Part shown: positions 8,043-64,000 of the stretch, piece by piece
Numbering within the stretch: position 1 is the first letter of the stretch
Layout: every line of letters starts with the position of its first letter
Assembly (NCBI GenBank): GCA_038045705.1
Contig: JBBSXO010000006.1
Location: forward strand, 44,506-108,505
DNA from: Nanobdellota archaeon
Lineage (GTDB): Archaea; Nanobdellota; Nanobdellia; Pacearchaeales; GW2011-AR1
Reading direction: 5' to 3'
Length of the DNA stretch: 64,000 nucleotides
Position numbers and translations under genes: made by a program
The notes under the pieces: model-generated
What the model saw: only the letters and a program-made list of their open reading frames with translations
Databases searched by the model: none
What the model was told of the DNA's origin: nothing

Positions 8043-8096
8043 AGCTAAAAAAAGTTATTTTGTTTTTAATAGATATGTATTCTGAAAAGCATACAA

Positions 8097-8717: not shown

Positions 8718-8749
8718 AAATCAAAATAATAAAATACCTATTTAAAGAT

Positions 8750-9790: not shown

Positions 9791-9980
9791 ATAACTAATA
9801 AAAATCTCAGAATTATAAGGTTATTCTTTTAGAATGTTTAAGATAGTAATACTTCCTACCATCAACAATTTTAGTAATTATTTTCATAAATCTATTATAC
9901 CTACAAACTACTTAAATTTTGCTATTTTAGCAAAATGTGGGTATAAAGTCTCGCTTTATTTTTACATGCGTTAGCAAATA

Positions 9981-10445: not shown

Positions 10446-10509
10446 AAATAATAATTACATTTAGAATTTATAAGTATTATCTAGAAACAAAACATCTATT
10501 GATAATTTA

Positions 10510-41824: not shown

Positions 41825-41849
41825 AGTTCGAGAAATATAAGTTCTTTAT

Positions 41850-41905
41850 TTAAATTTATGGTTATGTACACATATTTATACAATGTGTGTTTATACACAC
41901 AATAA
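41850..41905. promoter_or_regulatory. divergent promoter region with three TTTATACA repeats and TGTACACA palindrome
   Basis: atgtacacatatttatacaatgtgtgtttatacacacaataagtatata lies between the divergently transcribed regulator (40895-41824) and radical SAM gene (41936). Candidate BRE/TATA plus operator sites. Confidence 0.3.
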
Positions 41906-41935
41906 GTATATAATAAAACCTCAGATATATGAGTT

Positions 41936-43593: not shown

Positions 43594-44209
43594 ACTATTT
43601 GGTATTTCAAGAACAGGTAAAACTTCTACTTTGAGAAACCTTGCTTCACATTTCGAAGCAAATGGAGAAAGATGCGAAATTATTGGAAGAGCCCCAATAG
43701 ATTTCAAAAGTTGTAGAGATCTTGAAGACTTTCATCAAAAAATGCTATTATACTTAGAACAAAGAATTCCAGAGGCTCAAGAAAGAAAACCACATTATCT
43801 GTTGATGGACAGAGGACCTTATGATAGGCAAGTTATGCTAGAAGCAGACCATCAAGACGGAAAAGTAGGAGATCAAGTTTATAGAGATGCAACCCAAAGA
43901 CTGCTTAGTTTAGAACCAAAAATTGATATTCCTTTAATTTTTCTTGTAGATCCTACAACTTCTCTAGCTAGAATTGGTTCACAAAGAGACGAAGGCCTAG
44001 ACTATTCTCATATGTGTGTTGGGCTTAACACGAGAGACAATGTTGCTGAATTAGGTAGATTATTTGATCAGTATTCTGCTTTACAAAGGGCAAAGAAAGG
44101 CATTATAAGCGTTTATACTGGCGGAAGTGCAACAGATACATTACAATCAGCCTTAAGGGTAATAGCATCGACAAAAGTTAAAAACAATGGAGAACATACA
44201 CAATCATGA
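43583..44209 (+). CDS. P-loop deoxynucleoside/nucleotide kinase-like protein
   Basis: Walker A GISRTGKTS and LLMDRGPYDR (DR motif of the dNK/TMPK fold). The start is probably the Met at MLTIELFG rather than the ORF-track start at 43535. Confidence 0.5.
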   Translation, partial: LTIELFGISRTGKTSTLRNLASHFEANGERCEIIGRAPIDFKSCRDLEDFHQKMLLYLEQRIPEAQERKPHYLLMDRGPYDRQVMLEADHQDGKVGDQVYRDATQRLLSLEPKIDIPLIFLVDPTTSLARIGSQRDEGLDYSHMCVGLNTRDNVAELGRLFDQYSALQRAKKGIISVYTGGSATDTLQSALRVIASTKVKNNGEHTQS

Positions 44210-44718
44210 AAGAAATAGAGATTAAACTAAAATACAGCGATGAAAATGCGCTAAGAAAGAAAATAAAAAGTATTGGAAAACACACAGAGACCTATGAGAT
44301 TGTTGATTGTTATTATGGAAGAGATGGCGAAAACATGAAGACTGCTGAAAAATTGCTAAGGATAAGAACAAAGAAAGGAGTATCTGAGCTTACATTTAAA
44401 GGTAAAAAAGAGACAGAAGGAAATGTCTGGGAAAGAGTTGAGATAAATGTTCCAATTGGGGATTCTGAGAAGATGGAACTTGTTCTAAAAAACCTTGGAC
44501 TAAAAAGAATTCTAAAAAATCGAACAATTAGAGAATACTGGAACATTAATGGAACAGAATTAGGAATTATGAAAATTAAAGAACCAGCAGAAGTTGATTT
44601 TGTAGAGATCGAAGGTAAAACTAAAGAAGATGTTGAAAGAGTTACTGGCTTGTTTAAAGGAATTTTAGAGCCTATTGGTAAAGACCATTTCAAAAAATTA
44701 GATGAGGCTAACAAATAA
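44206..44718 (+). CDS. CYTH-domain (triphosphate tunnel metalloenzyme) protein
   Basis: N-terminal EIEIKLK (ExExK), RIRTKK, ERVEINV and EIEGKTKE glutamate pairs characteristic of CYTH/CyaB-ThTPase. Confidence 0.65.
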   Translation: MKEIEIKLKYSDENALRKKIKSIGKHTETYEIVDCYYGRDGENMKTAEKLLRIRTKKGVSELTFKGKKETEGNVWERVEINVPIGDSEKMELVLKNLGLKRILKNRTIREYWNINGTELGIMKIKEPAEVDFVEIEGKTKEDVERVTGLFKGILEPIGKDHFKKLDEANK

Positions 44719-45290
44719 TGTTGCCAGAGATATTTATCATAAGGCATCCAGAAACAATCAATAATAAAGAAAAGATCATTGAAGATCCTATGGGAGGAGA
44801 TTTATCTGAATATGGTAAATCTCAGATACCTGATGCAGTTAAGAGTTTATTATCTTTAGAAATTTCTAAAGTATACTCTAGCGATTCTGCACGATGTAAA
44901 GAACTTGCTGAAGCATTTTCTAATGAATCTGAGATAGATATCCATTATGATCCTATGCTTCGCGAAGTCAATAGTGGAGATTGGATCGGCATGAAAAAAA
45001 TAGAAGTTAAAAAGCTTATAGCACAGAATAAAAGACCAAGAAATGGAGAAAATTTAGATCAATTAATGCAAAGAGCTAAAGTTGTCCTTAACAAATTAAT
45101 TCAAGAAAAAGGTAGAATATTATTAATCACTCATGGTTGTCTAAGTAAAATGATTATAGGTGCAACAATGAATATGGGTGCTTATGAAGCAGATGAAAAA
45201 GTAAGCATAAAAAATTGTCAGATAATAAAATTGGATTTCAAAAATATAGGGTCAAAACAGATTCCACTTATTCAAAACAGAAAAAATTAG
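44718..45290 (+). CDS. histidine phosphatase family protein (second copy in cluster)
   Basis: N-terminal IFIIRHPETINN (RHxE) and a late LITHG. Overlaps the CYTH stop codon. Confidence 0.55.
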   Translation: MLPEIFIIRHPETINNKEKIIEDPMGGDLSEYGKSQIPDAVKSLLSLEISKVYSSDSARCKELAEAFSNESEIDIHYDPMLREVNSGDWIGMKKIEVKKLIAQNKRPRNGENLDQLMQRAKVVLNKLIQEKGRILLITHGCLSKMIIGATMNMGAYEADEKVSIKNCQIIKLDFKNIGSKQIPLIQNRKN

Positions 45291-45313
45291 AGGTATAGTG
45301 ATTGGATTAATTA

Positions 45314-45628
45314 ATGAGGAACACACTACAAAAAGAGAAAAGTAAAGAAAATCTTTTATCTGAGATGCTCTCATATCTCGAACCAAAGGAAACTATCCAA
45401 ATTAATGGGAAACTTTCTTATAAGGAAAGTTTAGGTTCTTGGAATGTAATTCAATTGCAAAAAGAGATTATTGATTTATTTCCTCAACTTAGAGAGAAAA
45501 GAAGTAATTTTGGTTATACTATGTTCTATAATCGCTCGTTTAAGGAATCGAGAAAAATAATTGATGAGCTAGAAAAAAACGGGGTTGTTCCTATTTTTCT
45601 GTTGTTAGGTAAGGTAAAAGAAAGATAG
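45314..45628 (+). CDS. conserved small protein, copy 1 (paralog at 61145-61459)
   Basis: 104 aa, about 80% identical to the inverted copy 16 kb away (LSYLEPKETI.I.GKLSYKE.LGSWNVIQLQKEIID.FPQLREKR..FGYTMFYNRS.KES.KI..ELEK.GVVPIFLLLGK). Confidence 0.4.
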   Translation: MRNTLQKEKSKENLLSEMLSYLEPKETIQINGKLSYKESLGSWNVIQLQKEIIDLFPQLREKRSNFGYTMFYNRSFKESRKIIDELEKNGVVPIFLLLGKVKER

Positions 45629-45675: not shown

Positions 45676-46644
45676 ATGAAAAAAGAACCAATCTCAAAGA
45701 GACAGCATTATGTTAATCAAGCTTACTTAAAAAATTTTAGAATAGAAAGTACGGAAGATAGTTTATTTATGTATGATAAAGAGAAAATGTCTATTGCTAG
45801 GGTAAAAACTGCAAATGTAGCCAGCGAGAATTTCTTTTATGATAGGACAGAAGAGCGCATTATAGAGAAGACTTTAGCAGAATTTGAAGGTAAATGTAAT
45901 GTTATCTTAAAAAAGGTCATCGAAAAGGAAGATTTAGACCAATTAATTAGTGAAGAAAAGGAGCTTTTAGCGACGTTTTTAGCAGTTCAATTTTTAAGAT
46001 CAAAAGAATTAAGAATTGATTATAAACAGATTGCAGAGGCTGTTTTAGAAAGGGTTGCTGAGAAAATAGTTCCAGATTTTAAGAAAGGAGATATTAAAGT
46101 CGTAGAAGATTCTTTATCTGGACTTCATGTACATACGATTTTTAAAGAATCTGGACATTTTGCAAAATTATTTCTTGATAAATCATGGAAATTATGTATC
46201 AATAATTCCTCTATTCCTTTTTGGACTTCCGATAATCCTTGTGCAATACATAACGATCTTGAGCCAGAACCATTCAAAAGCAATCTAGGAATTGAATGTA
46301 AGGGCTTTCAGTTGCATTTTCCATTATCTTCAAGGTTACTCTTAATAATTATTGACAAAAACATTAAGGTAATTGATTTAAGTAATGCAAAAGAAATAAA
46401 ATATCCAAAAAAGAGAAGTTTTTACAGGAATATAGATAAGAAACTAGACGTTCCTTTATTTACTTTAATGCCTCCAAAGGAATTTGTTGGAGGGGACAGA
46501 GTTACTTTTGAGAATAATTTGCAGGTAATATCTGCGACAAGATTTATCTTTTCTTCAAATGAAGATTTTTCTCTTGCTGACAAATATTTAAAAGAACAAC
46601 CGATACATAGAAATGCAAATAGAGGAAGATTTAAAGTAATGTAA
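45676..46644 (+). CDS. DUF4238 family protein
   Basis: N-terminal KRQHYVNQAYLKNF matches the DUF4238 signature (H-x-h-P/N-Q-x-Y-L-K-x-F). Confidence 0.45.
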   Translation: MKKEPISKRQHYVNQAYLKNFRIESTEDSLFMYDKEKMSIARVKTANVASENFFYDRTEERIIEKTLAEFEGKCNVILKKVIEKEDLDQLISEEKELLATFLAVQFLRSKELRIDYKQIAEAVLERVAEKIVPDFKKGDIKVVEDSLSGLHVHTIFKESGHFAKLFLDKSWKLCINNSSIPFWTSDNPCAIHNDLEPEPFKSNLGIECKGFQLHFPLSSRLLLIIIDKNIKVIDLSNAKEIKYPKKRSFYRNIDKKLDVPLFTLMPPKEFVGGDRVTFENNLQVISATRFIFSSNEDFSLADKYLKEQPIHRNANRGRFKVM

Positions 46645-50909: not shown

Positions 50910-52082
50910 TTGATACGGAAGAGCATGAAAATAGACCCATACAACCACGAAGAAAAATACAAAGCTTGGAGAGAAAGAGTTACCAATGGTATTCCCGATA
51001 TTTCCAAACAAAATTCTGATTTAATACTGACTTATCTGAAAGATATGGAACTAGGAATAAATATTGGAAATGGTAGCACTAAAGGTGCTAGAGGCTATAA
51101 CAGATTAAATTCCTTAAGGGATAAACTATGTTTCTTCTCAAAACAATTTAAGTCGCATTTTGATATAGATAATATAACAACCATTTCTGAAGACCAGTTA
51201 GTTGGTTTCTTTGCAAAAATGACTTCAGGTGATATCAAACGTATAGATGGAAAAACTTACACATCAGTAGATACCTATTCCAAAATCTTTAGAGCATTTT
51301 GGCATTGGTGGCAAAAAGTAAATCGTAAAAAAGGAGTCGATATTAAGGATATAACTACAGACTTAGATACGAGACAAAAAAAGCCAAAATGGGTATACAT
51401 GACTGAAGAAGAAGTCAAGAAATTAACAGAAAACGCTCGTTTCGATTATAAGGTGCTAATCTATTTCTTGTTTGATTCTGGAATCAGATCTCCTACGGAG
51501 TTAGTTAATGTAAAAGTTTCAGATTTATTCAATAACTATAAAGAAATGAACATTAGAGAGGAAGCAAGTAAAACATTTGGTAGAAGAATAAAGCTTATGA
51601 TCTGTTCAGATCTTATAAAGGAATACATAAAATCTAAGAAACTTACTCCAGAGGATCAGTTATTTGATATACATCATGCTACTGTTAATCGTTACCTTAA
51701 ACGCTTAGCAACAAGAGTCTTTGGAGAAAGAGAAAGTCCTGCTGGTGAGAAATATTCAAACCTTACCATGTATGACTTTAGGCATATCTCATGCTGTTAT
51801 TGGCTTCCACGTTACAAATCTGAAAGTGCATTAAAGTATCGCTTTGGCTGGAAAGAATCAGATAAGATCCACTATTATTCTGAATTGTTAGGTATGAGCG
51901 ACACAATAGCGGAAGATGACATGCTTATAGATGTTACAAAAACCGAGATTGAGAAAGAACTGGAGAGATCTAAGAAGGAAAAAGAAATACTTCAAGAAAA
52001 GATGCAGACAATGGAATTACAGATGGTGAAGATAATGGAATTAGTAAAACAATTAACAGTGAATGCTATTCCTCAGACATGA
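50910..52082 (+). CDS. int: tyrosine recombinase / integrase (paralog of 21162-22334)
   Basis: Same boxes as the first integrase (DSGIRSPTELVNV, YDFRHISCCYWL, KIHYYSELLG). About 65% identical to it. Confidence 0.7.
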   Translation: MIRKSMKIDPYNHEEKYKAWRERVTNGIPDISKQNSDLILTYLKDMELGINIGNGSTKGARGYNRLNSLRDKLCFFSKQFKSHFDIDNITTISEDQLVGFFAKMTSGDIKRIDGKTYTSVDTYSKIFRAFWHWWQKVNRKKGVDIKDITTDLDTRQKKPKWVYMTEEEVKKLTENARFDYKVLIYFLFDSGIRSPTELVNVKVSDLFNNYKEMNIREEASKTFGRRIKLMICSDLIKEYIKSKKLTPEDQLFDIHHATVNRYLKRLATRVFGERESPAGEKYSNLTMYDFRHISCCYWLPRYKSESALKYRFGWKESDKIHYYSELLGMSDTIAEDDMLIDVTKTEIEKELERSKKEKEILQEKMQTMELQMVKIMELVKQLTVNAIPQT

Positions 52083-52316: not shown

Positions 52317-53813
52317 TTAAGAAACCTTATCTTTTAGTTCAAGTAATCCTTTCTTAATTTCATCAACTAAACCCAATGTTTCTTGAAGTATCTCTTTACT
52401 AGGTCTATAAACAATATTTTCTTCTTCATATTTCTTATATTTTGAGATACTTAAGTCAAATTCATTCTCTTTTATCTCGCTAATTGGAACAAAGAAATGT
52501 TTCTTCTTTCGATCTTCATTTGACTGTTCTTTTCTTTTTTTAAAACTCTCAATAATATTTGGAATATCATTTTTATCTGGCTGTTTGGTTCTTTTATCAT
52601 CTAAACTATATCCATCATATTCCATATCATAAAACCATACTCTCTGAGTTGGTTCTCCCTTTGTGAAGAATAAGACTGCAGTAGAAACCCCAGCATATGG
52701 CTTGAATACTCCTGAAGGCATTGAAATAACTGCATCTAACCTGCATTTCTCAAGAAGAAGATTTCTTACATCTTTATGGGACTTGGAATTACCAAATAAA
52801 ACTCCGTCTGGAACTATTACGGCACATCTTCCTCCATTAGCTAGAGAATTATACATTAATTCTAAGAATAGGAGCTCGGTTTTCTTTGTTTTTATTCTGA
52901 AATTATCACTCATTTCAGATTCATCAATAGACCCCTTAAATGGAGGATTTGCTAAAATTAAGTCGTAAGTGTTATCTTCATTGTATCTTTTTGATAATGT
53001 ATTAATTTGTTGTAGATTTGGTCTTGATATACCGTGCATCATTAAGTTCATTAAAGCTATTCTGACCATAGTTTGGTCTATATCATACCCATAAATTGAT
53101 TCTTCATCTAAAAGCTGTTTTTGTTTAGCGTTTAATTTATCCCCTTTGAAATTGTATTCATTTCCTTCTTCATCTTTTTTGATTAAATCTTTAGAGGTAT
53201 TTTGTCTAAGAATATGTTCATAAGCATTAACAAGAAATCCAGCAGTTCCACATGCAGGATCTAAGATTCTATCTCCATATTCAGGGTTTCCCAATTCAAT
53301 CATCATTTTGATTATATGTCTTGGAGTCCTAAACTGACCATTTTTTCCAGCTGTTTGAAGCTCTGATAAAAGAAATTCGTATATATCCCCTTGAGTATCT
53401 GTATTTTGTTCTTTGATATGCATATCATTAATTATCCTTACTGCCTCAATCAATAAAGAGGCAGTGGGTATCTCAAAGTTAGCATTTCGCATATACTTGG
53501 AGTAGTAAGAATCTCCTTTGTCAAGATTTCTTAAAAATGGAAATACTTTATCTCTCACATGGTCACTAATCTTATCTGCTGAATAGTTTGACCACTGAGA
53601 CCATTTGCAGTCTTCATGTCCTTTAAACATGGATTGATGTGGTTCGCCTGTAAGTGTTCCTTCTTGTTGTTTTCGTATGTCTTCATCTTCTAAACGCCTC
53701 ATAAAAATAAGATAGGATATTTGTTCGATTGCTTGGAGAGGATTGCTAATGCCTCCGCTCCAAAACTTATCCCATAATTTCTGGACTTTTGATTTTAGTT
53801 CATTGTGTAACAT
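52317..53813 (-). CDS. hsdM: Type I restriction-modification system methyltransferase subunit
   Basis: HsdM N-domain, motif I DPACGTAGFL and motif IV LANPPF. Confidence 0.8.
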   Translation of the reverse strand: MLHNELKSKVQKLWDKFWSGGISNPLQAIEQISYLIFMRRLEDEDIRKQQEGTLTGEPHQSMFKGHEDCKWSQWSNYSADKISDHVRDKVFPFLRNLDKGDSYYSKYMRNANFEIPTASLLIEAVRIINDMHIKEQNTDTQGDIYEFLLSELQTAGKNGQFRTPRHIIKMMIELGNPEYGDRILDPACGTAGFLVNAYEHILRQNTSKDLIKKDEEGNEYNFKGDKLNAKQKQLLDEESIYGYDIDQTMVRIALMNLMMHGISRPNLQQINTLSKRYNEDNTYDLILANPPFKGSIDESEMSDNFRIKTKKTELLFLELMYNSLANGGRCAVIVPDGVLFGNSKSHKDVRNLLLEKCRLDAVISMPSGVFKPYAGVSTAVLFFTKGEPTQRVWFYDMEYDGYSLDDKRTKQPDKNDIPNIIESFKKRKEQSNEDRKKKHFFVPISEIKENEFDLSISKYKKYEEENIVYRPSKEILQETLGLVDEIKKGLLELKDKVS

Positions 53814-54669
53814 TTGATTTATCCACCTCTTTTAAGAAAGTCTTTTCTATATTTAACTTGATTTCGTTGAAAGTTTTTATCAATACGGGAATTGCTTTTA
53901 CAATTGGAAGATTTTCATTATAATCAAAAAAGTTTAAATTAGAATCTTTGGTGTAAGGATAGCGCGGTGTATTGAAGTGTAAAAATGTTATAAGACTCAA
54001 ATAATGCAGTTTAAAACTAATCATCATGTCAATTACATATTCTTCTAATTTATAACTCTCTATGGAAGCCCTTACGTCTGAATCTCTAATTCTAAATGTC
54101 GTTATTCTAAATAACATATGCTTAATAAAACTAATAAAACTTTTTTCATGCACCCTTTCATTTAAGTTTTTCATAGTCTCTTCTGATTTAAGATTCTTCT
54201 CTGAATTTTTTAAGAATTCAAGAATAAAATTTATATGTGATTCTGATATATTTCTTAATTCATCTTCAGTTTTTTCTAGAGTTTCCAATCCCTTTTTTGA
54301 AACTTCCAAATCAATTTTAACATCATTAATAATATTGCTTACCTCTGTTATATCATTTATATCTTCTTCTTTAATTTCTTTCTTTAGTTTATCTAGAATA
54401 AATGAGTGTTTATAGGCTTCATGGGGGTCTATTCTCCCAATAAATATATAGTAACTCTTAGTTAGCTTCTCAAAAGCTTGTTGCAAGTGATATGCTGAAC
54501 CTGCATAATGCTTTAAATCATATAGTATTTTACATATCTCAATATCATTAGTAGCAATAGTAAGCCACTTTTTAGTAAACTCCATATTTTTTATTGAAGA
54601 CTGTACTCTTTCATCGCTCTTTCTTAGTATTTTTTCCATTAATAATGGGTCAACTTGATATTTTTTCAT
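53800..54669 (-). CDS. hypothetical protein embedded between hsdS and hsdM (helical; possible HEPN-like)
   Basis: 289 aa, all-helical composition. Overlaps both neighbours by 4-14 nt, so it is translationally coupled within the R-M operon. Confidence 0.3.
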   Translation of the reverse strand: MKKYQVDPLLMEKILRKSDERVQSSIKNMEFTKKWLTIATNDIEICKILYDLKHYAGSAYHLQQAFEKLTKSYYIFIGRIDPHEAYKHSFILDKLKKEIKEEDINDITEVSNIINDVKIDLEVSKKGLETLEKTEDELRNISESHINFILEFLKNSEKNLKSEETMKNLNERVHEKSFISFIKHMLFRITTFRIRDSDVRASIESYKLEEYVIDMMISFKLHYLSLITFLHFNTPRYPYTKDSNLNFFDYNENLPIVKAIPVLIKTFNEIKLNIEKTFLKEVDKSNVTQ

Positions 54670-55820
54670 TTTATCAGTTCTCCCCTAAATGCTTTTTGCA
54701 TGAGCGAATCAAATATTTGATTAAGCATTTTGTTTTTTTCTTTCTGTTTTTCTTTTAATCTTTCAACATGTTCAATAATAGAAGAAAATTTTCGTTGAAT
54801 ATTAATTGGAGGCAAACTAAAACTTAAATTTTCTATTATACTCATATTTAGTCCTGGCATAATTGCCCCTCTCATTCGAATATTCAACTGATGTAGCACT
54901 CCAGGGTCAGAATATATTAAATAAGAAATATAGAATGGATCAGCAATATCATTATTTAAAGTAATTGCGACTAAATGTTTTGTGTTGATTGCTAAAGGAA
55001 TGTTTTCTGGAACAACCACCGATCTTCCTACAGTACCCATAATTGTTACCAGCACATCTTTTGGGTGAACTGTATATCTTTTTAGTTTTTCATACTTCTC
55101 TTTAGTAATGTATCTTCTTTCGTCCCAAGAAAAATAATTATTAACAACATTATCAATCCCTAAAACTGCAATACCTTTACTAACAAACTCGGAGTGCAAT
55201 AAGTCGCTACCGAATGGTCCTGTTCTAATACTTCCTTTAGGCTTAGCTAAGACTTCTTTTAGCTTAACTTTTGACCATCTAGAATAATTCAAACTACCTT
55301 TACTAAGAAGCTCGTAAAAAACGCTTTTGAGGTATTCATCAAACAATTCAAGAACCCCTTTCCCATTAATGCTGGCCTTCTCAGATTTTTTTAATAAATT
55401 AATAATTTCTTGCTGAACCCGTATATTAATTGGATAAATAAATTTTATTTTTTCAATATAACTTTTAGATATGTGCTTTAGTCCTGCGCCTTTGAAACCC
55501 CTCTCTAAAATATGCATTTTTGATTTAAGATAATAATAAATATACTCTGTTAAGACTTTGTCTTTTATACTAACGACAAAACAATCGTTAGAAGCTGAGA
55601 ACCTTTCATTGCAGTAATGAACTCCAGCCTGGCCTCCGCTTGAAAAGATTAAATGTTCCCCATCAAAATCAAATTCATTGATTTTCTTACTTTGAACATT
55701 ACTTGAAGTAAAAAACTTATATTTTCCATCTTCTAAACCTTCTCCGGCTTTCCTTCCTGTTCTACTTTGAAAAGAAAGTATTACTCCTAACTCAATTTCT
55801 TGCCAATTAGTATTTTTCAT
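54666..55820 (-). CDS. hsdS: Type I restriction-modification system specificity subunit
   Basis: Two target-recognition-domain halves and a conserved C-terminal LPPINIQRKFSSIIEHVERLKEKQKE...LMQKAFRGEL. Confidence 0.7.
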   Translation of the reverse strand: MKNTNWQEIELGVILSFQSRTGRKAGEGLEDGKYKFFTSSNVQSKKINEFDFDGEHLIFSSGGQAGVHYCNERFSASNDCFVVSIKDKVLTEYIYYYLKSKMHILERGFKGAGLKHISKSYIEKIKFIYPINIRVQQEIINLLKKSEKASINGKGVLELFDEYLKSVFYELLSKGSLNYSRWSKVKLKEVLAKPKGSIRTGPFGSDLLHSEFVSKGIAVLGIDNVVNNYFSWDERRYITKEKYEKLKRYTVHPKDVLVTIMGTVGRSVVVPENIPLAINTKHLVAITLNNDIADPFYISYLIYSDPGVLHQLNIRMRGAIMPGLNMSIIENLSFSLPPINIQRKFSSIIEHVERLKEKQKEKNKMLNQIFDSLMQKAFRGELIK

Positions 55821-56404
55821 TTAAAGCTTTTTATTACCTCATTATTAATATAAACTAAGTTATTAATTAATATGAAATAGCGTTGAAGAACAACTATAAA
55901 TTCATTTTTTAGCGATAGATAAAGAGATGTTTTTTCTATACTGTCATGAATTTCCTTCTGTCCTTCCGTTCTATGAGAAAACTTTCCATAAAGAAATATT
56001 TCCAATATTTCTCTATTTGTATAATTCTTAATATTTATGCTGTAATTAGTCGAGACTTTTAGAAATTTATCTATATCAGACATTTCTTTTCCAAACATTT
56101 TTCTTTCTTTATCACATACAATAGTTGATTGATAGAAGAGATTTAACTTTTCAACCTTGAGAGAATCGTTCTTTTGTATAAACTTTCTAAGATCATTGCA
56201 AAACGCTTTAATAGACTCGTCATCTGGCCCTCTTAGCTCAGTTCTAAGTAATTTATCTAATGCATTCCATTTTATTGTTACTCCCGATCCATTTAATTTA
56301 TCTTTAAAGCTTAAATCAAATATTTCTTGAGCTTCTTTATTGAACTCTATAAATTTGGCGATTATTTCATCTTTTGTTTTAACTGGCTTTGTCATATTAC
56401 TCAC
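55817..56404 (-). CDS. hypothetical protein embedded in Type I R-M operon
   Basis: 195 aa, no motif. 4-nt overlaps with its neighbours. Confidence 0.3.
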   Translation of the reverse strand: MSNMTKPVKTKDEIIAKFIEFNKEAQEIFDLSFKDKLNGSGVTIKWNALDKLLRTELRGPDDESIKAFCNDLRKFIQKNDSLKVEKLNLFYQSTIVCDKERKMFGKEMSDIDKFLKVSTNYSINIKNYTNREILEIFLYGKFSHRTEGQKEIHDSIEKTSLYLSLKNEFIVVLQRYFILINNLVYINNEVIKSFK

Positions 56405-57383
56405 CCTTCGCTTTTAGTTTAACATATAAAGGAAATATTTTCTTTTCCTTTTTTATGAATAGAATAACTTCTTGAAGTATCTGTTTGTTCTGCTTTTTTG
56501 CTATTTTTTGATACTCTTCTATGAAGTATTTTGGTAGGGAAAAGAAACCCCAGTTTTGAGATCTTAAATTTAGACTTCTCTTCAGAGTTACTTGATTCTC
56601 ATTCTTTACATAAATAACTTCTTTTTGTTTCATTGTTGGATTTATTTTTACTTTTCCTTTAGTAAGAAAGTGAATTGGCCACAGATTGTCAAGTATTCCA
56701 AAATAAGAATTTATTGGTTTTATAAGCTTCTTTAGTTTCTCCATTGCAGTTTTATAATTATCTTTAGTAACGTTTGATGGTAGTTTATCAAAGTCGTCTA
56801 AGGTCTTTATATTCCAAACCTGTTGCTTCGTCAATTCTTTATAATTTATTTCCTTGGTTAAAGAGTTCATTCTTTTTCTTAAGTCCTCAATTATCTGAAA
56901 ATTTTCGTAAGAAACAAAATATATTCCGTGTGACCACATTAATGCTTGAGCGTTTTTTGCAAAGCCTGATGTCGAATAGAAAACTGGGATATAACTATAT
57001 CTTTTCTCATCAAATATCTGAGAGTATTTGGTTCTTGATCTGCTTTTTGTGTTAATCCTTGAATATTGGGATATATCGATGAAAGCTCCTAAAAACTCCC
57101 TTACTTGCTTTATCTGGATTGGTGTTGAATAATTCTTGGCCTCTCCAACCAAAAGGAAAGGGTATGAAAATGGAAGAGTTATCGGAAACTCTCCTATGAA
57201 GTCAGGATCATAAGTTCCACCCCTCCCATGAAGTCTCTTTTTTGTTTTTGATTGTGTCATTTGACCAACTTGGGCATTTAAATCAAAGCCTGCCTGCTCT
57301 ATCCAGTCTCTGAGAATAAACTCAAACAATTTACCTCTTACCGCATTCTGTTTGTAAGTAATTTGAGGATTACGCCTTACCAT
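56397..57383 (-). CDS. PD-(D/E)xK restriction-endonuclease-like protein embedded in R-M operon
   Basis: DPDFIGE...FLLVGEAKNY (D ... E-x-K) typical of the Mrr-cat/PD-(D/E)xK fold. Length 328 aa. Confidence 0.35.
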   Translation of the reverse strand: MVRRNPQITYKQNAVRGKLFEFILRDWIEQAGFDLNAQVGQMTQSKTKKRLHGRGGTYDPDFIGEFPITLPFSYPFLLVGEAKNYSTPIQIKQVREFLGAFIDISQYSRINTKSRSRTKYSQIFDEKRYSYIPVFYSTSGFAKNAQALMWSHGIYFVSYENFQIIEDLRKRMNSLTKEINYKELTKQQVWNIKTLDDFDKLPSNVTKDNYKTAMEKLKKLIKPINSYFGILDNLWPIHFLTKGKVKINPTMKQKEVIYVKNENQVTLKRSLNLRSQNWGFFSLPKYFIEEYQKIAKKQNKQILQEVILFIKKEKKIFPLYVKLKAKGE

Positions 57384-58026
57384 CTTTAACCTCCAAAACT
57401 AGAATTGAATCGGTGTCTAGGTACTTGATCTTGTTAACACTTCTTATAGTAATATCAACTTTGCCAATTTCTTTTGCAGGCTTAATTAGTATATCTAGCG
57501 TTCCATTGCCAAAGAGTTCTCTTTCCCAGATAATCGCATTCTTGCCGATTATTATTATTTTATTGTCTAAAACTTTCTCAGGAACAATAATTATTCTATT
57601 TCCGTAATCCAAGCGAGGTACTCTTTCCTCATAATCAATTCTGCGCATTAATTTTGTAAACACTTCAACATAAAACTTGTTAGAAAGAAGGATATAAGAA
57701 TTATTAGATTCAATATATTTTGGAAATTCTGTAATGTCCTCTTTAACTTCAATTTTTTTAATTTGTTTATTATCAATTATTGTCTGGATAAGAAAATCTC
57801 TCTCACCCATAGCAACCATCATACCTGCACTAGGCAATGACGGATGAAAACTAGGATCAATAAAAATATCATCTTCTATTACCGGTCTTATTCCTATTTG
57901 AATGAAAGAACCGTCTGTCTTTTCAGTTGTCCTCACTGTTGCAATATCTTCGATGACCAGGCTTCGACTATAATCTTCAGTTGTCAACCTGATAAATTCT
58001 GCTATTTTTTCCTGATTATAAATCAT
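57370..58026 (-). CDS. hypothetical protein embedded in R-M operon
   Basis: 218 aa, no motif. Overlaps its neighbours. Confidence 0.3.
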   Translation of the reverse strand: MIYNQEKIAEFIRLTTEDYSRSLVIEDIATVRTTEKTDGSFIQIGIRPVIEDDIFIDPSFHPSLPSAGMMVAMGERDFLIQTIIDNKQIKKIEVKEDITEFPKYIESNNSYILLSNKFYVEVFTKLMRRIDYEERVPRLDYGNRIIIVPEKVLDNKIIIIGKNAIIWERELFGNGTLDILIKPAKEIGKVDITIRSVNKIKYLDTDSILVLEVKDGKA

Positions 58027-58271
58027 TCTTTCACCTCAAAATTCCATTGCTTTTGCTTTATGTTGACTCTTTCGTATTCGCTTTCTATTCCTTTCTTTTG
58101 TTTTGTAAGAGGGTTACCTACTATTTCCTGCTGAACCAGCTCCCTTAGTTTTTGGTGAATGCTTTTGTTCTCGGCTTCACATATCTTCATAATATTAGCA
58201 AATTCAGAGCGGTAGAGCTTAGTTGAAACTACTCTTCTACCTTCACCTCTTGTAATGGAGTCATTTGACAT
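58023..58271 (-). CDS. small DNA-binding protein (RHH-like) downstream of hsdR
   Basis: 82 aa. VVSTKLYRSEFANIMKICEAENKSIHQKLRELV fits a beta-strand plus helix-helix pattern. Confidence 0.3.
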   Translation of the reverse strand: MSNDSITRGEGRRVVSTKLYRSEFANIMKICEAENKSIHQKLRELVQQEIVGNPLTKQKKGIESEYERVNIKQKQWNFEVKE

Positions 58272-58355
58272 GCTAATAATCTGATACCTAACTATTTAAA
58301 TTTTACGATAAATCGGTAGACCGATTTTCTAGATATAATATGAGTTATACCTCAA

Positions 58356-61100
58356 TTATCGCCATTTGAGTTTATTACATTTTTCAACGATTTTCTCCAG
58401 TTGCTCTCGGCTAAACTTGTCCAAAGGTCTCTCTTCAGTAAGAGGATGTTTTGCAAGGTCTTTGAGGGTTATGTGTTTTGTACGGACAAAAACCTCTCTT
58501 AGAAGCCTTAGGAACTTTATTTGGTCTGAGTTATAATGTTGGTTTCTGTCTAAAATATATTTATCAAACTCATTCTTTATCATCTGCTCTGGGTCAGGCA
58601 AGTCTCGTATCCCAATTACTTGACGAATAAATAAAATAAAGTCAATCTTTATGATATTCTGGATATTTTCTATTGTCCATGCTGGGTTAAGGCTAGAAAG
58701 CTTCTTTTCTATTTCTAGAATTTCCTGCGCCGTTACTCCTTCCCCATTCCTTATTTTTTTAATGAGATGATCGTGCTCAATAAACTCTGTCAAATCTTTA
58801 TTCTCTTTTATTTCATGTTTCAACTGTTCAACTTTAAGCACTACATCAGGGGCGTCTACTCGCAACATTTTCTTTCGTTCTGAATCATAGTAAATCATAA
58901 GGGGAGATATCTCGCGTATAAGAAAATCAACATCCTCAAAGCTTAAGTCTTCCCAAAAAGTCTCTTGCATGACCCTCTTCATATCATTGCTCTTTGCTTG
59001 AATAACTTCAAGTCCTTTTTCCCATACATTTTGGACTCGTTCTTCAACAAATTCACGAATATTCCAGATTTTGTCTTTGTTATTATCTTGAATTGCTCTA
59101 AATAGTTTTACGCATTGCGAAACAAAGGCATAAACTTTTGAGTTTTCAGATTGAGAATACATCAGAAGCGGAGCAATATCATTTCTTAACTCTTTGATAT
59201 GATCTTTAAGATCGAATCTTTCCGAGACTACCTTTCTTATTATTGGTAACTTTTCTATAACTGCTGGAGATTCCATATCTATTAACCTTACAGTATCGCG
59301 TATTTCTTTTTCTATAATCTTTACTTGCTTCTGCTCTAGTTTCTTTTCAAGAAGATCAACTTGTTCTAGGAAAATTCTTGTTTTTGAGTCTATGACATCT
59401 GCTTTATTTTTAGTTCTGTCAAGTTGGTGAAATACTACATTGGAATGGTCTCCAAATTTAAAGTCTAAAATCAAAAAACTTTCTTTAATGGCTTGCCCAT
59501 CTTTTGAGGGTAACCAATCTTTATGTTTACACGCTTCTAAGTTTCTCGTTCCTCTTCCCAACATCTGCCAAAATCTTATGGGTGAAAAGACTGGTTTAAC
59601 AAATACTAGGTTGCAAATTTCTGGAATGTCTACTCCTGTATCTAGAACTCCAACAGATAAAACTATTCTTGGTTCAGAATCTTTTTCAAATCGCTTCACT
59701 TCATCCATATATCTCGTCCTATCTGAAGTTATCACTCTGACCTCTTTTGCAAGAGTAGGATAGAGCCTATCAAAAATAGTCTTTAATGACTCCGCATGTT
59801 TAACACTTGCACAGAAAAATATTGTTTTGCATGGTTGCCCGTCATCAGACTTATAACATCTATCAATAAACTCATTAATAATTAGTTCGTTTGTTTTAGC
59901 ATCAGTAAAATATTTTTCAAATCTCCCTCCTGGTAGCTCTATTTTTTCTGGGTCTTCTTCTTGTTCTTTTAAGATTTGTTTTAATTCTTTGGTTAATTTT
60001 GAACCTTCTATACCTAAGGATAAAACTCTAGTCTCTATTATATCTGCTACATATGGGGCAAGAACTCCTTCATTAACTGCGGTATCATAATCATATTTTA
60101 CCGTAGGTTTCTTATCTTCACAGTCAAATAGTTTGAACGTGTCTCGACTATCTTCTTTTGAAGGGGTAGCAGTAAGACCTAACCTGATACAATCAAAATA
60201 ACTAAAGAGAATATTGTTCGAATCATAAAAAGACCTATGTGCTTCATCAAATACAATTAAGTCAAAGAAACCTACGCCAAATTTCTCGTACATTGGTCTT
60301 TTCTTTTTATTATCGCTATTGGTCAAAGTTTGCACTGTGGAAACGTAGAGTCTCGCGCTGTCTGAGAATCCTTCAAAGTTTAATTCACACACTGGCTCAT
60401 TAAAAAAACTTTTGAACCCTTTCTCTTTGGCTTGATTTGCAAGTGAAATTCTATCAACTACAAATAAAACATTTTGAACATGGTCTGATTTTATCAAAGC
60501 ATCAATTACTGCCATAGCCACTCTTGTTTTACCAGTTCCTGTTGCCATATTAACTAGAGCAGAACGATGATTTTTTGAAAAGTGCTCTAAAATCTGCTTA
60601 ACTATCTCAACATTTCTTGGGCGGTCAACTATTTTAGTATTAATTTTAACTTTTACTGGGTCTTTTTCATGTTCATATAAATGTTGTCTTCTTTGAAGAT
60701 CTTTTTGAGTAAACGGTAAAAGAACTTTTCTTTTACATTCCTTTTGGTCTACGAAGTACCACGAATCCCCATTAGTAAGAAATATTGCTATCTTTTTACC
60801 AGTCTGTTTTTCAATGTCTTTTTGATATGATCTCGCTTGGATCTCACCTTTTTCAATACTAACAGACGTCTTCTTAGCTTCAATTACTGCTAGAGGAGAA
60901 TAATCTTCATCTAATAGTAAGTAGTCTATGAATTTATCAACTCCCCTCTCAATATTACTTTTGTCATTTGTATATTCTTTAGTCTTAAAATTAGACTTCA
61001 CACAGTTAACTTCTTCTTTTATGTATTCTTTTACCCAACCAGTTCTTTTCAAGAGTGGGTCTATCTTTTCTTTTCTAGTTTCTGCTTCTGATAATTGCAT
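58356..61100 (-). CDS. hsdR: Type I restriction enzyme endonuclease/helicase subunit
   Basis: N-terminal TRKEKIDPLLKRTGW and PD-(D/E)xK (DYLLLDEDYSPLAVIEAKK). Helicase motif I MATGTGKT and motif II VFDEAHRS. Length 914 aa. Confidence 0.75.
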   Translation of the reverse strand: MQLSEAETRKEKIDPLLKRTGWVKEYIKEEVNCVKSNFKTKEYTNDKSNIERGVDKFIDYLLLDEDYSPLAVIEAKKTSVSIEKGEIQARSYQKDIEKQTGKKIAIFLTNGDSWYFVDQKECKRKVLLPFTQKDLQRRQHLYEHEKDPVKVKINTKIVDRPRNVEIVKQILEHFSKNHRSALVNMATGTGKTRVAMAVIDALIKSDHVQNVLFVVDRISLANQAKEKGFKSFFNEPVCELNFEGFSDSARLYVSTVQTLTNSDNKKKRPMYEKFGVGFFDLIVFDEAHRSFYDSNNILFSYFDCIRLGLTATPSKEDSRDTFKLFDCEDKKPTVKYDYDTAVNEGVLAPYVADIIETRVLSLGIEGSKLTKELKQILKEQEEDPEKIELPGGRFEKYFTDAKTNELIINEFIDRCYKSDDGQPCKTIFFCASVKHAESLKTIFDRLYPTLAKEVRVITSDRTRYMDEVKRFEKDSEPRIVLSVGVLDTGVDIPEICNLVFVKPVFSPIRFWQMLGRGTRNLEACKHKDWLPSKDGQAIKESFLILDFKFGDHSNVVFHQLDRTKNKADVIDSKTRIFLEQVDLLEKKLEQKQVKIIEKEIRDTVRLIDMESPAVIEKLPIIRKVVSERFDLKDHIKELRNDIAPLLMYSQSENSKVYAFVSQCVKLFRAIQDNNKDKIWNIREFVEERVQNVWEKGLEVIQAKSNDMKRVMQETFWEDLSFEDVDFLIREISPLMIYYDSERKKMLRVDAPDVVLKVEQLKHEIKENKDLTEFIEHDHLIKKIRNGEGVTAQEILEIEKKLSSLNPAWTIENIQNIIKIDFILFIRQVIGIRDLPDPEQMIKNEFDKYILDRNQHYNSDQIKFLRLLREVFVRTKHITLKDLAKHPLTEERPLDKFSREQLEKIVEKCNKLKWR

Positions 61101-61144: not shown

Positions 61145-61459
61145 TTAAGAATCCGAATTATCCTTTATCTTTCCCAACAACAGAAAAATGGGCACAACAC
61201 CTCTCTTTTCTAACTCTTCCATTATTTTCTTAGATTCCTTTGAAGAACGGTTGTAAAACATAGTGTAGCCAAAGCTACCTCTTTTTTCTCTTAATTGAGG
61301 GAATATATCTATAATTTCTTTTTGTAATTGAATAACATTCCAAGACCCTAGACCTTCCTTATAAGAAAGTTTACCACTTATTTTGATTGTTTCTTTTGGT
61401 TCTAAATAGGATAAATTTTCAGGCAACAGTTCTTTTGAGTCTGATAATATCCTTTTCAT
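61145..61459 (-). CDS. conserved small protein, copy 2 (paralog of 45314-45628)
   Basis: 104 aa, about 80% identical to copy 1, in inverted orientation. Confidence 0.4.
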   Translation of the reverse strand: MKRILSDSKELLPENLSYLEPKETIKISGKLSYKEGLGSWNVIQLQKEIIDIFPQLREKRGSFGYTMFYNRSSKESKKIMEELEKRGVVPIFLLLGKIKDNSDS

Positions 61460-61514
61460 AAACAGACTAACCCTTTAGTTTATATTAAGGCTGGCTTCAC
61501 GAATTCATCAAAAA

Positions 61515-61922
61515 CTATTTCTTAAGAATTTTGGCTAGTTTTTCTTTGAATTCTTGCACGTCCTTAAAATCAAAAGTTTCATCAGCCATGCCTTTAAGCA
61601 TAAACCCTCTTCCGTCTGGACCTGATGCTACAATGACTTTCTTACCTAATCCTTTCATCATCCCACTTTCTATTAACAAACCTTCTCCCTTTTCCTGAGT
61701 TTCTATTATTGAGATAATCGCATCACACTTTTTCATTTGTTCAAATGCCTTTTTCATTATTTCTTTAGGTTCCATTCCCCCTGGCTTCCACTGTTGCATA
61801 TCTCTTACAAAAATAAATGTTTTATGTCCTAAATCTTCAATAACTTTAGAAACCTCTTCTAAGCGTTTCTTTAAGATTGTGAAATCTACTCCGCTCAACT
61901 TATAGGCTATGTATATTTTCAT
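61515..61922 (-). CDS. nucleoside 2-deoxyribosyltransferase-like (flavodoxin-like fold) protein
   Basis: 135 aa. Hydrophobic MKIYIAYKLSG N-terminus, DAIISI...EKGEGLLIESGMMKGLGKKVIV. The pattern resembles the PF05014/PF15891 nucleoside N-glycosidase/transferase family. Confidence 0.4.
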   Translation of the reverse strand: MKIYIAYKLSGVDFTILKKRLEEVSKVIEDLGHKTFIFVRDMQQWKPGGMEPKEIMKKAFEQMKKCDAIISIIETQEKGEGLLIESGMMKGLGKKVIVASGPDGRGFMLKGMADETFDFKDVQEFKEKLAKILKK

Positions 61923-63175
61923 TTTATTGCTCCTCTTCTTTGAAGATTGAACTGTTCATATGCTTTTCGGACGTAATCATCCAGTTCTTCCATAGGCATT
62001 CCATTCAGAGAATGGATATTCATAACATGATATTTAACATGTTCTCCACCTGTCTTAAATTGATGATATGTATCTAAGGTTTCTGGAGTAAATCCTTTTG
62101 TTAACATATCTGAATATAATCTAGTGCCAGGAAATGCTCTAACTACCATGAATCTTGCATCAGAAGCTTCAAGATCTAAGGCAAATCTTATTGTATCTTC
62201 TATTTCATCTTTTGTTTCAGTAGGATATCCAATAGTAAAGAATCCCTTGCTTTCAATTCCTAATTCTCTACATTTTCTAAAAACTGCTTTAGTATGCTCT
62301 GTGTCTTGGCTTTTTCCTATATACTTTAGTATACGAGGAGTTGCAGACTCTACTCCAAATGCTAGCTTGTAGCACCCTGCTGCTTTCATTTCTTCAAGTA
62401 ACTTTTCATCTAAGTTATCTGTTCTGCATAAAGCTCTCCAACCTACTCTAACTTCTCTTCTTGCAAGACCATCTGCAAGCTCTCTTACTCTATCTTTAGA
62501 ATAATTAAACAAATCATCAATAAAGTGTATTCTTCTTACTCCGCTTTGTTGTAGGGCTTCAATTTCATCAATAACGTTTTCCACAGATCTTGCCCTCATT
62601 TTTCTTCCGTTAATTGTTGGAACAGAACAATAAGCACAACTAAACTTGCATCCTCTAGCAGTACTCATAGAAGCTTCTTTTCCATACTTTGTGGGATAGG
62701 GATCATTTGAGAATAAACTTCTGTCTACAAATGGAAGACTATCAAGATCATGTGCAACTCCTCCGTGAACTATCCCCCTTGGAGCGTTTCTAAGTATACT
62801 AGGTAAAACATCTTCGGCTTCTCCAGTAACTATGGTATAATCTCCTCTAATTCTTTCAGGTTGTAATGTAGCTTGAGGTCCTCCAACTAATTTAACTGGA
62901 GCTTCAATTTGATCTATTATTCCAAGAGATAATTGATGATTTGTTGAGAAGACATTGATACCTACTCTTTTTGGATTCATTGCAGAAACTCTTTCGACTA
63001 TTTCTGCTGGGCTAAGTTTTTCAGCTTCTGCGTCAACTATTGTTGAGTCATAACCCAATCTTCTAGCAATTGTAGCTAAATAACCTAAACCTATTGGAGC
63101 AGTTGTGAAATAATAAGGTTTATTCTCTCTTTCATATTCTTGTAATGGACTGTTAATTAATACTAAATCTGTCAT
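61919..63175 (-). CDS. B12-binding-domain radical SAM enzyme (class B-like)
   Basis: N-terminal B12-binding-like domain (LVLINSP...APIGLGYLATIARRLGYDSTIVDAE), then ARGCKFSCAYCSVP (CxxxCxxC). Confidence 0.7.
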   Translation of the reverse strand: MTDLVLINSPLQEYERENKPYYFTTAPIGLGYLATIARRLGYDSTIVDAEAEKLSPAEIVERVSAMNPKRVGINVFSTNHQLSLGIIDQIEAPVKLVGGPQATLQPERIRGDYTIVTGEAEDVLPSILRNAPRGIVHGGVAHDLDSLPFVDRSLFSNDPYPTKYGKEASMSTARGCKFSCAYCSVPTINGRKMRARSVENVIDEIEALQQSGVRRIHFIDDLFNYSKDRVRELADGLARREVRVGWRALCRTDNLDEKLLEEMKAAGCYKLAFGVESATPRILKYIGKSQDTEHTKAVFRKCRELGIESKGFFTIGYPTETKDEIEDTIRFALDLEASDARFMVVRAFPGTRLYSDMLTKGFTPETLDTYHQFKTGGEHVKYHVMNIHSLNGMPMEELDDYVRKAYEQFNLQRRGAIK

Positions 63176-63763
63176 TTAATCTCCCATTAACTCCAAATTT
63201 ATTACAATATTATCTACTGTTCTCTTAGGTTTCTTTCCTTCATTTAACAGACCTTTATTTTTTAGATGAGTCAAATAGGTTGAAACTGTGCTTAATTTTA
63301 TGCCACTTTTATTAGCAATATCAAGACTTGTATTTTCCCCATCGCATAATTTTAATATTTGTAGTTTGATTTTATTAAGTGGTTTAATCTGTTTACTAAA
63401 TTCTTCATGTCTTGAGACAAACATACTTTTCTTCTGATTCTTTATCTCTATTTTTGTTGCAAGATCGTTAATCCTATCGAAATAAGAATAAAATTCATTC
63501 GCTAAAAATTCTATGAACTGCTTATAATTTAATTTCTCATTTAACTCAATTTTACTATTGACTTTAGAGAGTACTTCTACTAAATCTTCAATTTCTTTTC
63601 TTTCTGGTAACTTTCCACCATAGTTTGAATCTATTATCTGCTTAATTGTTTCAACAGACATACCCATAGAAGGAATAATCTTTTGTTTTTGATGCATGAT
63701 TACAGGAACATTTGTAACAAATAAAGGAGCAGGTGGAGAATAGAATGAATTTAATTTAAGCAC
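63176..63763 (-). CDS. winged-helix transcriptional regulator
   Basis: C-terminal LCDGENTSLDIANKSGIKLSTVSTYLTHLKNKGLL HTH. The preceding region is helical. Confidence 0.4.
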   Translation of the reverse strand: MLKLNSFYSPPAPLFVTNVPVIMHQKQKIIPSMGMSVETIKQIIDSNYGGKLPERKEIEDLVEVLSKVNSKIELNEKLNYKQFIEFLANEFYSYFDRINDLATKIEIKNQKKSMFVSRHEEFSKQIKPLNKIKLQILKLCDGENTSLDIANKSGIKLSTVSTYLTHLKNKGLLNEGKKPKRTVDNIVINLELMGD

Positions 63764-64000
63764 GTGATCTATATCTCTTTTGAAAACCTTGAACCTTTCA
63801 GAAGTAAGATAATGTGTTGGCTGACTATTGCATATCTCTGGAGCTATTTCTTGTAAGTAAATAGAGATTAGATAGTCAATAATAATATAATTTAATTTTG
63901 AAAGGCTTATTTCCCCAAATGGGGTATAATTAATAGAGAAACCCTTACTAATTTGTTCTAAATTGATTAAAGATAAAATCTTTTGATAAATCTTAGAAGT

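Follow-up and report, generated by a model that had tools for sequence, protein, structure and literature searches.

A conserved five-gene cassette combining a radical SAM enzyme, a deoxyribosyltransferase-like protein and a synthetase-like winged-helix protein in mobile elements of DPANN archaea

One end of a 64,000-nt stretch of DNA from a Nanobdellota archaeon (contig JBBSXO010000006.1 of assembly GCA_038045705.1, positions 44,506-108,505; "the window" below means this whole stretch) carries the window-side portion of a conserved five-gene cassette. The cassette encodes a HAD-family hydrolase, a protein that joins an aminoacyl-tRNA synthetase (aaRS)-like domain to a winged helix-turn-helix (wHTH), a radical S-adenosylmethionine (SAM) enzyme, a small protein related to nucleoside 2-deoxyribosyltransferases (NDT-like) and p104, a protein of 104 residues. 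It borders a variable cargo slot of an integrative/conjugative element, filled mostly by restriction-modification systems (types I, II and III-like) and delimited by an integrase or a VirB4 ATPase. The cassette might perform chemistry on a nucleotide scaffold in the service of mobile-element conflict, a reading to which we assign a probability of about 35%. The components are members of known superfamilies, and their logic resembles that of radical SAM nucleotide modules of the viperin and OxsB type; the gene combination, the aaRS-like/wHTH family and the setting in DPANN mobile elements appear to be undescribed, and no published account of the cassette was found in the literature searched. 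The genes are listed here by window position, except for the HAD gene, which is placed on locus L001, the continuation of the window's contig beyond its end.

63176..64000, minus strand: aaRS-like/wHTH gene, C-terminal 275 codons (residues 94-368 of a 368-aa protein)
61919..63175, minus strand: radical SAM enzyme with an N-terminal B12-binding-type Rossmann domain, 418 aa
61515..61922, minus strand: nucleoside 2-deoxyribosyltransferase / nucleotide N-glycosidase family protein (NDT-like), 135 aa
61145..61459, minus strand: p104, 104 aa
L001:7573-8229, outside the window: HAD-family hydrolase, 218 aa

Four co-oriented open reading frames (ORFs) on the minus strand fill 61145-64000. The radical SAM ATG follows at once on the stop codon of the wHTH gene, and the last 4 nt of the radical SAM gene (61919-61922) are shared with the NDT-like gene. 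The wHTH gene is listed in the window as a 195-aa ORF (63176-63763), and its frame is free of stops to base 64000. L001, found by exact-protein look-up in metagenome-assembled genome (MAG) GCA_964357645.1, is 100% identical to the window across 12 kb; there the complete gene encodes 368 aa (L001:8210-9316), starts ~282 nt past the window end and is preceded by the HAD gene, with a 20-nt overlap. A preliminary description of the region, made from the window sequence, had named a three-gene module of radical SAM enzyme, deoxyribosyltransferase-like protein and wHTH regulator, and had judged it incomplete. All three genes are where it put them, and its statement that the module continues past the window end was correct, since the frame is open to base 64000 and both the regulator gene and the HAD gene upstream of it are completed in L001. 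Its title named neither the HAD gene nor the 104-aa ORF, which falls within the range it described.

Further loci were gathered in three ways: an alignment of the radical SAM enzyme against one genome per species, a scan of JGI metagenomes for the wHTH family, and ten exact-protein look-ups. The ORFs of every locus were compared with the window proteins, and gene counts are restricted to loci with the wHTH gene and sufficient flank. By this measure the HAD gene is present in 41 of 45 loci, the radical SAM gene in 36 of 39 and the NDT-like gene in 27 of 30, while p104 lies beside the cassette in 19 of 26. The usual order is HAD, wHTH protein, radical SAM and NDT-like, mostly with 4-nt overlaps. 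Because this order is kept in dozens of loci, at radical SAM identities as low as 36%, the arrangement is not due to chance. Variants occur. Three of the four loci that lack the HAD gene (L011, L084, L089) carry a CYTH triphosphatase in its place, and in P0272, a distant family member, a CYTH domain is fused to the aaRS-like domain and the wHTH is missing; the contigs of P0272 and of P0270, another distant relative, are too short to show a gene neighbourhood. A NUDIX hydrolase gene follows immediately after the NDT-like gene in L098 (4553-5056), and L013 (11370-12727) has genes for a SAM methyltransferase and a Peptidase_S51 protein (PepE/cyanophycinase-like) placed after the radical SAM gene and before the NDT-like one. 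The radical SAM and NDT-like genes are in reversed order in L129, and in L014 the cassette is decaying, with a split radical SAM gene. The hosts are DPANN archaea (Woese-, Pace- and Nanoarchaeota MAGs) at all loci except suspected mis-binned records, among them, we suspect, the L018 record labelled Babeliales. Hainich groundwater samples are the origin of several loci. The distribution is very patchy, with a few dozen clusters among 5.8 billion proteins.

The gene first described as a wHTH regulator does encode a wHTH, but as one part of a larger fusion: the structural model indicates that the protein is a tryptophanyl-/tyrosyl-tRNA synthetase (TrpRS/TyrRS)-like domain of class Ic followed by a C-terminal wHTH. 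The family is conserved over its full length (73 clusters), and its Pfam matches, to several winged-helix models, are confined to the last ~65 residues. From 54 sequences, AlphaFold gives a confident model (pLDDT 89.3), and a fold search aligns ~250 of its residues to whole TrpRS/TyrRS chains, spanning the Rossmann catalytic fold and the helical domain that follows it. Sequence likeness to synthetases was found neither by Pfam (including PF00579) nor by NCBIfam or a PDB profile search, and hhalign gave no match to a genuine DPANN TyrRS/TrpRS (L084:19480-20610), so that only the fold search is informative. The protein differs in the same way from cyclodipeptide synthases, to which sequence similarity is likewise not detectable, and its C-terminal wHTH is an addition relative to both groups. 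The signature motifs of TrpRS/TyrRS are replaced. The HIGH position reads T-N-x-N-H, with N17 and H20 invariant, and the KMSKS position reads I-P-S-x-E-M-S, with no lysine. Conserved polar residues occupy expected motif positions (N17 and H20 in TNxNH, W37-D38, D136), and E43 and Y158 are invariant along with W37, D38 and D136. The protein is thus aaRS-like in fold and is not an aaRS. The family is also narrow: a profile of the N-terminal domain recovers 51 representatives among 1.84 billion proteins, and the aaRS-like-plus-wHTH architecture is present in six of the seven distant members scanned, which are ~390-430 aa long.

By analogy, we read the protein as a putative synthetase-derived ligand-binding or ligase domain joined to a DNA-binding domain. 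BirA and NadR are functional precedents for an enzyme or sensor that doubles as a repressor. In common with them and with Csa3 (CARF plus wHTH), the cassette protein would couple a catalytic or sensor domain that binds a nucleotide or adenylate to a (winged) helix-turn-helix, and its own operon is preceded by a palindrome. The catalytic fold is class Ic aaRS-like here, whereas BirA has a class II-like fold and NadR that of NMNAT. The order of the domains differs too, and DNA binding by the cassette protein is a prediction. Candidate operators are apparent. In the window's lineage, the sequence upstream of HAD (L001:7490-7541 region) contains a perfect 18-bp palindrome, TTTGATGAATTCATCAAA, ~55 nt before the ATG, and a second inverted repeat, TTGATAGAATAATCAA. 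In other lineages (L007-L018, L091, L092), the divergent p104/HAD promoter region and a leader, GGGAAAAAGAGTTCTTGATAA, which ends in GAGTTCTTGATAA, are conserved although the proteins of those loci are only ~40% identical. Rfam finds no known RNA or riboswitch in this leader, and a scan for sigma-70 promoters and terminators was uninformative, the host being an archaeon.

The radical SAM enzyme carries the domains that the preliminary description assigned to it. Pfam places PF04055 at 99.6 bits and the B12-binding domain PF02310 at 45.2 bits (threshold 32.1) over residues 23-127, and CKFSCAYC supplies the CxxxCxxC cluster motif, whose cysteines C176, C180 and C183 are invariant. An N-terminal Rossmann domain of B12 type followed by a CxxxCxxC radical SAM barrel is the layout of the class B enzymes QCMT, TsrM and OxsB. 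The best solved relative is AprD4 (E 1e-39, radical SAM core only), a diol dehydratase that makes no use of cobalamin; neither methyltransfer nor B12 use can therefore be assumed. The matches to QCMT (9CCB; 3e-32, residues 66-361) and TsrM (9e-20, residues 25-358) reach into the B12-type domain, and OxsB is matched at 7e-14. The structure 9CCB is that of QCMT, and AprD4 is listed as unrelated to B12-dependent enzymes despite its similar domain layout (PMC12931638). All 25 matches listed to curated radical SAM families in NCBIfam fall below cut-off. The best of these names are HpnJ (155 bits, cut-off 577.6) and a "lipid" B12-binding/radical SAM family (TIGR04072; 149 bits, cut-off 360). A clustering with lipid or cofactor methyltransferases had been named in the preliminary description as a point that would count against a nucleoside role; because both scores are so far below cut-off, they neither place the enzyme in that company nor clear it of the association. 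By its sequence, the enzyme lies outside every characterised family, HpnJ, ladderane/lipid radical SAM, PhpK, QCMT, AprD4, BzaD and BchE included. The cassette clade scores at least 275 bits and holds ~52 clusters; the next relatives score at most 204 bits, and in their loci, which contain several radical SAM genes, the cassette partners are missing.

The membership of the small neighbouring protein in the deoxyribosyltransferase fold is confirmed by a PF05014 (Nuc_deoxyrib_tr) match of 32.8 bits, above the gathering threshold of 28.8; the same domain is present in all 35 full-length or near-full-length homologues, and the flavodoxin-like fold is recovered with MilB among the top structural matches. 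The best solved relative by sequence is BcmB, the CMP N-glycosidase of the bacimethrin pathway. Likeness to BcmB and MilB is at the level of the family only (E 4.6e-5; 16% identity), and identity to solved PF05014 members spans 16-24%. Four residues, Y4, D67, E80 and E85, are invariant. The landmarks of the family are the nucleophile Glu98 and the N-terminal Tyr7 of L. leichmannii NDT, and the general acid Asp72 of NDT or Asp69 of Rcl. Alignment to BcmB and to three NDTs sets E85 (motif EGLLIE85SG) against their catalytic Glu, and Y4 is the N-terminal Tyr. Six positions ahead of E85 there is Gly or Ser and not Asp, a pattern that, among Rcl, MilB and NDT, fits 5'-phosphate hydrolases and not nucleoside transferases. 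Relative to the NDT, DNPH1 (Rcl) and MilB-BlsM-BcmB family, the cassette protein has a new invariant loop, F-x-R-D41-x-Q-x-W45, and its partners are a radical SAM enzyme, a HAD protein and an aaRS-like protein in place of CMP hydroxymethylase.

The HAD protein matches PF13419 and PF00702 (subfamily IA) in its C-terminal half only. The Ser, Lys and acidic motifs are retained, the cap contains conserved RAH and DHD motifs, and a YjjG-type noncanonical pyrimidine nucleotidase is among the best family matches. That a CYTH triphosphatase takes the place of this protein in some loci argues for a phosphorylated substrate. The position of the fifth gene, p104, varies: the window's lineage has it after the NDT-like gene, and most others have it ahead of HAD and transcribed divergently. 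Its product matches nothing in Pfam, for which all 15 homologues were scanned, or in PDB, NCBIfam or PHROGs.

A paralogue of p104, 83% identical to the cassette protein, closes a second module in the window at 38966-45628:

45314-45628, plus strand: p104 paralogue, at the end of the module

On one strand this module encodes a NUDIX hydrolase, a 267-aa protein with no assigned function, a histidine phosphatase (His_Phos_1) and a 309-aa protein with a weak, sub-threshold MazE-type N-terminal match; on the other, it encodes a 327-aa radical SAM enzyme, a DUF2064/CofC-like nucleotidyltransferase, an AAA_28 (kinase-like) protein, a CYTH protein and a second His_Phos_1 protein. The parallel between the two modules had been proposed at the outset and is borne out: because p104 is common to both, they are directly linked, and CYTH and NUDIX proteins occur in this module and, among cassettes, only in the variants of other genomes. 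Each of the two modules seems to centre on nucleotides. The p104 paralogue is immediately followed, at 45676-46644 on the plus strand, by a gene for a 322-aa DUF4238 protein (E 2e-39).

The surroundings of the cassette are those of a mobile element. At least 20 of ~27 loci with usable flanks have restriction-modification, VirB4 or integrase genes within 10 kb. The relevant features of the window are:

52317-61100, minus strand: type I restriction locus (hsdR, four ORFs, hsdS, HEPN, hsdM), 44 nt after the cassette
25767-28076, plus strand: VirB4/TraG-type conjugative ATPase
50910-52082 and 21162-22334, plus strand: tyrosine-recombinase-like paralogues of 390 aa each

At least nine other lineages have a homologue of the conjugative ATPase within 0-8 kb of the cassette, accompanied in L091 by TrbL- and TrbC-like genes, and the VirB4 region looks like an archaeal integrative/conjugative element. 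The 390-aa paralogues have no Pfam match in the window; their homologues in L088 and L092 carry Phage_integrase. Such an integrase is found within a few kb of the cassette in L005, L006, L088, L092, L100 and L114, where it bounds a slot whose cargo differs in each genome. Between p104 and the integrase, L005 has three genes of no assigned function, L006 a methylase and three genes, and the window a 9-kb type I system.

In the window, this system encodes four proteins of 82, 218, 328 and 195 aa with no known domain between hsdR and hsdS, and a 289-aa HEPN protein between hsdS and hsdM, an arrangement reminiscent of PrrC-type anticodon-nuclease loci. The order hsdR, p82, hsdS, HEPN, hsdM recurs in L009. 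Type I restriction is also present in L009 and L101, hsdR alone in L112 and an HsdR-like ORF in L115. Elsewhere the cargo is a PLD-helicase with an Eco57I/MmeI-type methylase (L013, L019 [= L086, L118] and in part L010), a nuclease with an N6/N4 methylase and a ResIII helicase (L090, L092), a MutH-like nuclease with Dcm (L091), a lone methylase (L006), or a MoxR-AAA/VWA block with a reverse transcriptase (L088, L095 and, upstream of the cassette, L001). Direct coupling of the cassette to type I restriction was considered and rejected, as four unrelated types of restriction genes are found adjacent and L005 and L006 carry other cargo in the slot.

Two more features of these surroundings deserve mention. 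The block at L001:1188-7475, also found in L088 and L095, comprises a MoxR-type AAA_5 ATPase, a 535-aa VWA protein, an adjoining reverse transcriptase and three paralogous proteins of ~270-300 aa with an N-terminal RF[IL]xLAxRLR motif. Its GC content of ~0.37 is above that of its surroundings. Its side relative to the cassette changes from genome to genome, so that it has the appearance of a candidate defence module in its own right. In L005 (6702-11002), the cassette-side integrase abuts homologues of window genes 6477-10762, which in the window are ~40 kb from the cassette-side integrase at 50910-52082; this displacement points to a large insertion or a rearrangement affecting the window's mobile DNA.

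How the cassette might work can be proposed from its parts. From the NDT family, the HAD, CYTH and NUDIX partners, and the Gly or Ser six positions before the nucleophile, we infer that the substrate would be a phosphorylated nucleoside. The radical SAM enzyme would transform it, most likely on prior grounds by C-methylation, with dehydration or rearrangement also possible. The HAD protein would trim a phosphate, a role that the CYTH triphosphatase would take in a sister clade, and the NDT-like enzyme would cleave or exchange the base through its conserved Glu nucleophile. The aaRS-like domain might bind ATP, an amino acid or a nucleotide intermediate, and possibly ligate it, while the wHTH would bind the palindromic operator upstream of the operon; like BirA and NadR, the protein would then repress transcription in addition to its role as an enzyme or sensor. 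The pathway would yield a modified nucleotide, nucleoside or base for use against viruses, rival elements or the host, for example an analogue that poisons a polymerase; manipulation of the nucleotide pool, by depletion or sanitation, is another form that the outcome might take. That the product acts in conflict at all, whether as an antiviral or anti-plasmid analogue or through depletion or sanitation of the pool, is speculative. There are precedents for the general scheme. OxsB and OxsA of the oxetanocin A pathway, and prokaryotic viperins with their nucleotide kinases, likewise pair a radical SAM enzyme with a phosphohydrolase or another nucleotide-handling enzyme to make an antiviral analogue from an ordinary nucleotide, and OxsB is itself a radical SAM enzyme of the B12 type. 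The cassette differs from these systems in having neither an HD-domain partner nor a radical SAM enzyme of the viperin type, and in the addition of a putative N-glycosidase and the aaRS-like/wHTH protein.

Several observations count against this proposal. Three of the four enzymes (HAD, aaRS-like and NDT-like) have non-canonical active sites. Motif I of the HAD protein is an invariant D-[YF]-G that lacks the general acid/base Asp at +2, so that the protein may not be a canonical phosphatase. The aaRS-like domain is without the KMSKS lysines and retains HIGH only in part. In the NDT-like protein, where the preliminary description had pointed to the catalytic Glu and Asp as the residues to inspect, the Glu (E85) is invariant, but the position of the general-acid Asp is an invariant Ala59 in two of three alignments (BcmB and 7O62); in the third (8PQP) the register differs, and the preceding helix has no invariant acid. 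The invariant D41 may substitute. The radical SAM enzyme has a class B layout, from which its reaction and its use of cobalamin do not follow on sequence grounds. The adjacency of restriction genes, which could suggest functional coupling, is best explained by the variable cargo slot, because the cargo of close relatives differs, and the CYTH-type variant of the cassette sits among housekeeping genes, in an apparently chromosomal location. The aaRS-like/wHTH family has no relative in the viral contigs of IMG/VR, and for this reason a provirus origin was dropped. No known anti-phage system was matched when the radical SAM enzyme, the wHTH protein, the NDT-like protein and p104 were scanned against PADLOC-DB v2: the radical SAM enzyme weakly matches the candidate PDC-M51A at the superfamily level (68.6 bits), the wHTH part matches generic Csa3/CasR models, and the NDT-like protein and p104 have no meaningful match.

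An alternative is that the cassette modifies nucleic acid, either the element's own DNA or a tRNA, and so protects it from restriction enzymes or anticodon nucleases. Binding of the polymer would fall to the wHTH or the aaRS-like domain and modification of a base to the radical SAM enzyme, and the NDT-like protein would exchange or excise that base. The cassette lies directly upstream of four types of restriction genes in the same orientation, at gaps of 35-77 nt, in at least five lineages, a pattern that the variable cargo slot can also account for. The neighbouring type I system with its HEPN gene invites comparison with PrrC-type loci, and the ~250-residue alignment to TrpRS/TyrRS suggests that a helical region able to contact tRNA may be retained. 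NDT domains in conflict systems have been proposed to act on DNA (PMC3710099). The NDT-like protein of the cassette, at 135 aa, is a minimal single domain, however, whose solved relatives hold mononucleotides or nucleosides in a closed pocket between subunits; the cassette has no DNA glycosylase, transglycosylase or polymerase-type partner, and the HAD, CYTH and NUDIX partners indicate free nucleotides. Modification of nucleic acid in this way is possible but unlikely.

Somewhat more doubtful is a nucleoside-antibiotic cluster, in which a CMP hydrolase like MilB or BlsM would free the base for a secreted antimicrobial. This setting takes up the comparison with nucleoside-antibiotic pathways in the preliminary description, whose proposal of nucleoside or nucleotide chemistry gains further backing from the HAD/CYTH and NUDIX partners and the CYTH fusion, but whose antibiotic-like context does not hold, the locus being an integrative/conjugative element with restriction-modification cargo and not a classical antibiotic cluster. 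The kinship with the bacimethrin-pathway CMP N-glycosidase and the structural match to MilB fit such a cluster, with the reservation that this likeness does not go beyond the family level. The methyltransferase and S51 insert of L013, taken with the putative ligase role of the aaRS-like domain, would fit a nucleoside that bears an amino acid. No conserved glycosyltransferase, exporter, CMP hydroxymethylase or other tailoring enzyme was seen among the annotated neighbours, and the cassette is borne by a mobile element, in DPANN symbionts with reduced genomes.

DPANN archaea cannot make nucleotides, and the cassette might instead serve accessory salvage under a ligand-sensing repressor, recycling scavenged or damaged nucleotides, with the aaRS-like domain acting as a sensor only. 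DNPH1/Rcl-type enzymes and HAD nucleotidases are classic enzymes of salvage and sanitation; the YjjG-type match of the HAD protein, the CYTH variant among housekeeping genes and the existence of a Rossmann-like sensor with a wHTH in Csa3, whose models the wHTH part matches, all agree with this idea. It is nevertheless improbable. A salvage function sits poorly with so patchy a distribution, with the linkage to mobile elements and with the decay seen in L014; a B12-type radical SAM enzyme is not needed for salvage; and the regulator gene, flush against that of the radical SAM enzyme and overlapping the HAD gene, is spaced with a tightness unusual for a pure repressor. Least probable is a radical SAM enzyme that methylates a lipid, a cofactor or a protein and has functionally unrelated neighbours: HpnJ and the "lipid biosynthesis B12-binding/radical SAM" family are its top NCBIfam names, QCMT, a protein methylase, is its second-best PDB match and p104 could in principle be a protein substrate, yet the scores are far under cut-off (155 vs 577 and 149 vs 360), its gene stays in strict synteny with those of the NDT-like, HAD and aaRS-like proteins, in frames that abut or overlap, down to 36% identity, and the next-closest radical SAM relatives lack the cassette partners.

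Nucleotide chemistry in mobile-element conflict thus remains our favoured, and tentative, account. A stronger form of it, which we regard as unlikely as it stands, is that the cassette is a new conflict system of mobile elements, in which a radical SAM enzyme of cobalamin type, an N-glycosidase and a phosphohydrolase would convert a cellular nucleotide to a non-canonical nucleotide or base. This product would block the replication of invaders or mark nucleic acid of the element itself, and a hitherto unknown sensor or ligase, derived from TrpRS/TyrRS and fused to a wHTH, would control or complete the system.

DPANN archaea are abundant uncultured symbionts whose mobile elements and immune repertoire are barely charted. 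Radical chemistry and a nucleotide N-glycosidase in a strict operon could encode a new pathway to a nucleotide analogue or modification, and viperin and oxetanocin provide a precedent for antiviral products. The TrpRS/TyrRS-like/wHTH family is a new and very narrow offshoot of the aaRS fold, and adds to the synthetase paralogues recruited to other functions. Together, the cassette and its integrase offer a practical marker for finding and delimiting such elements, and their defence cargo, in metagenomes.

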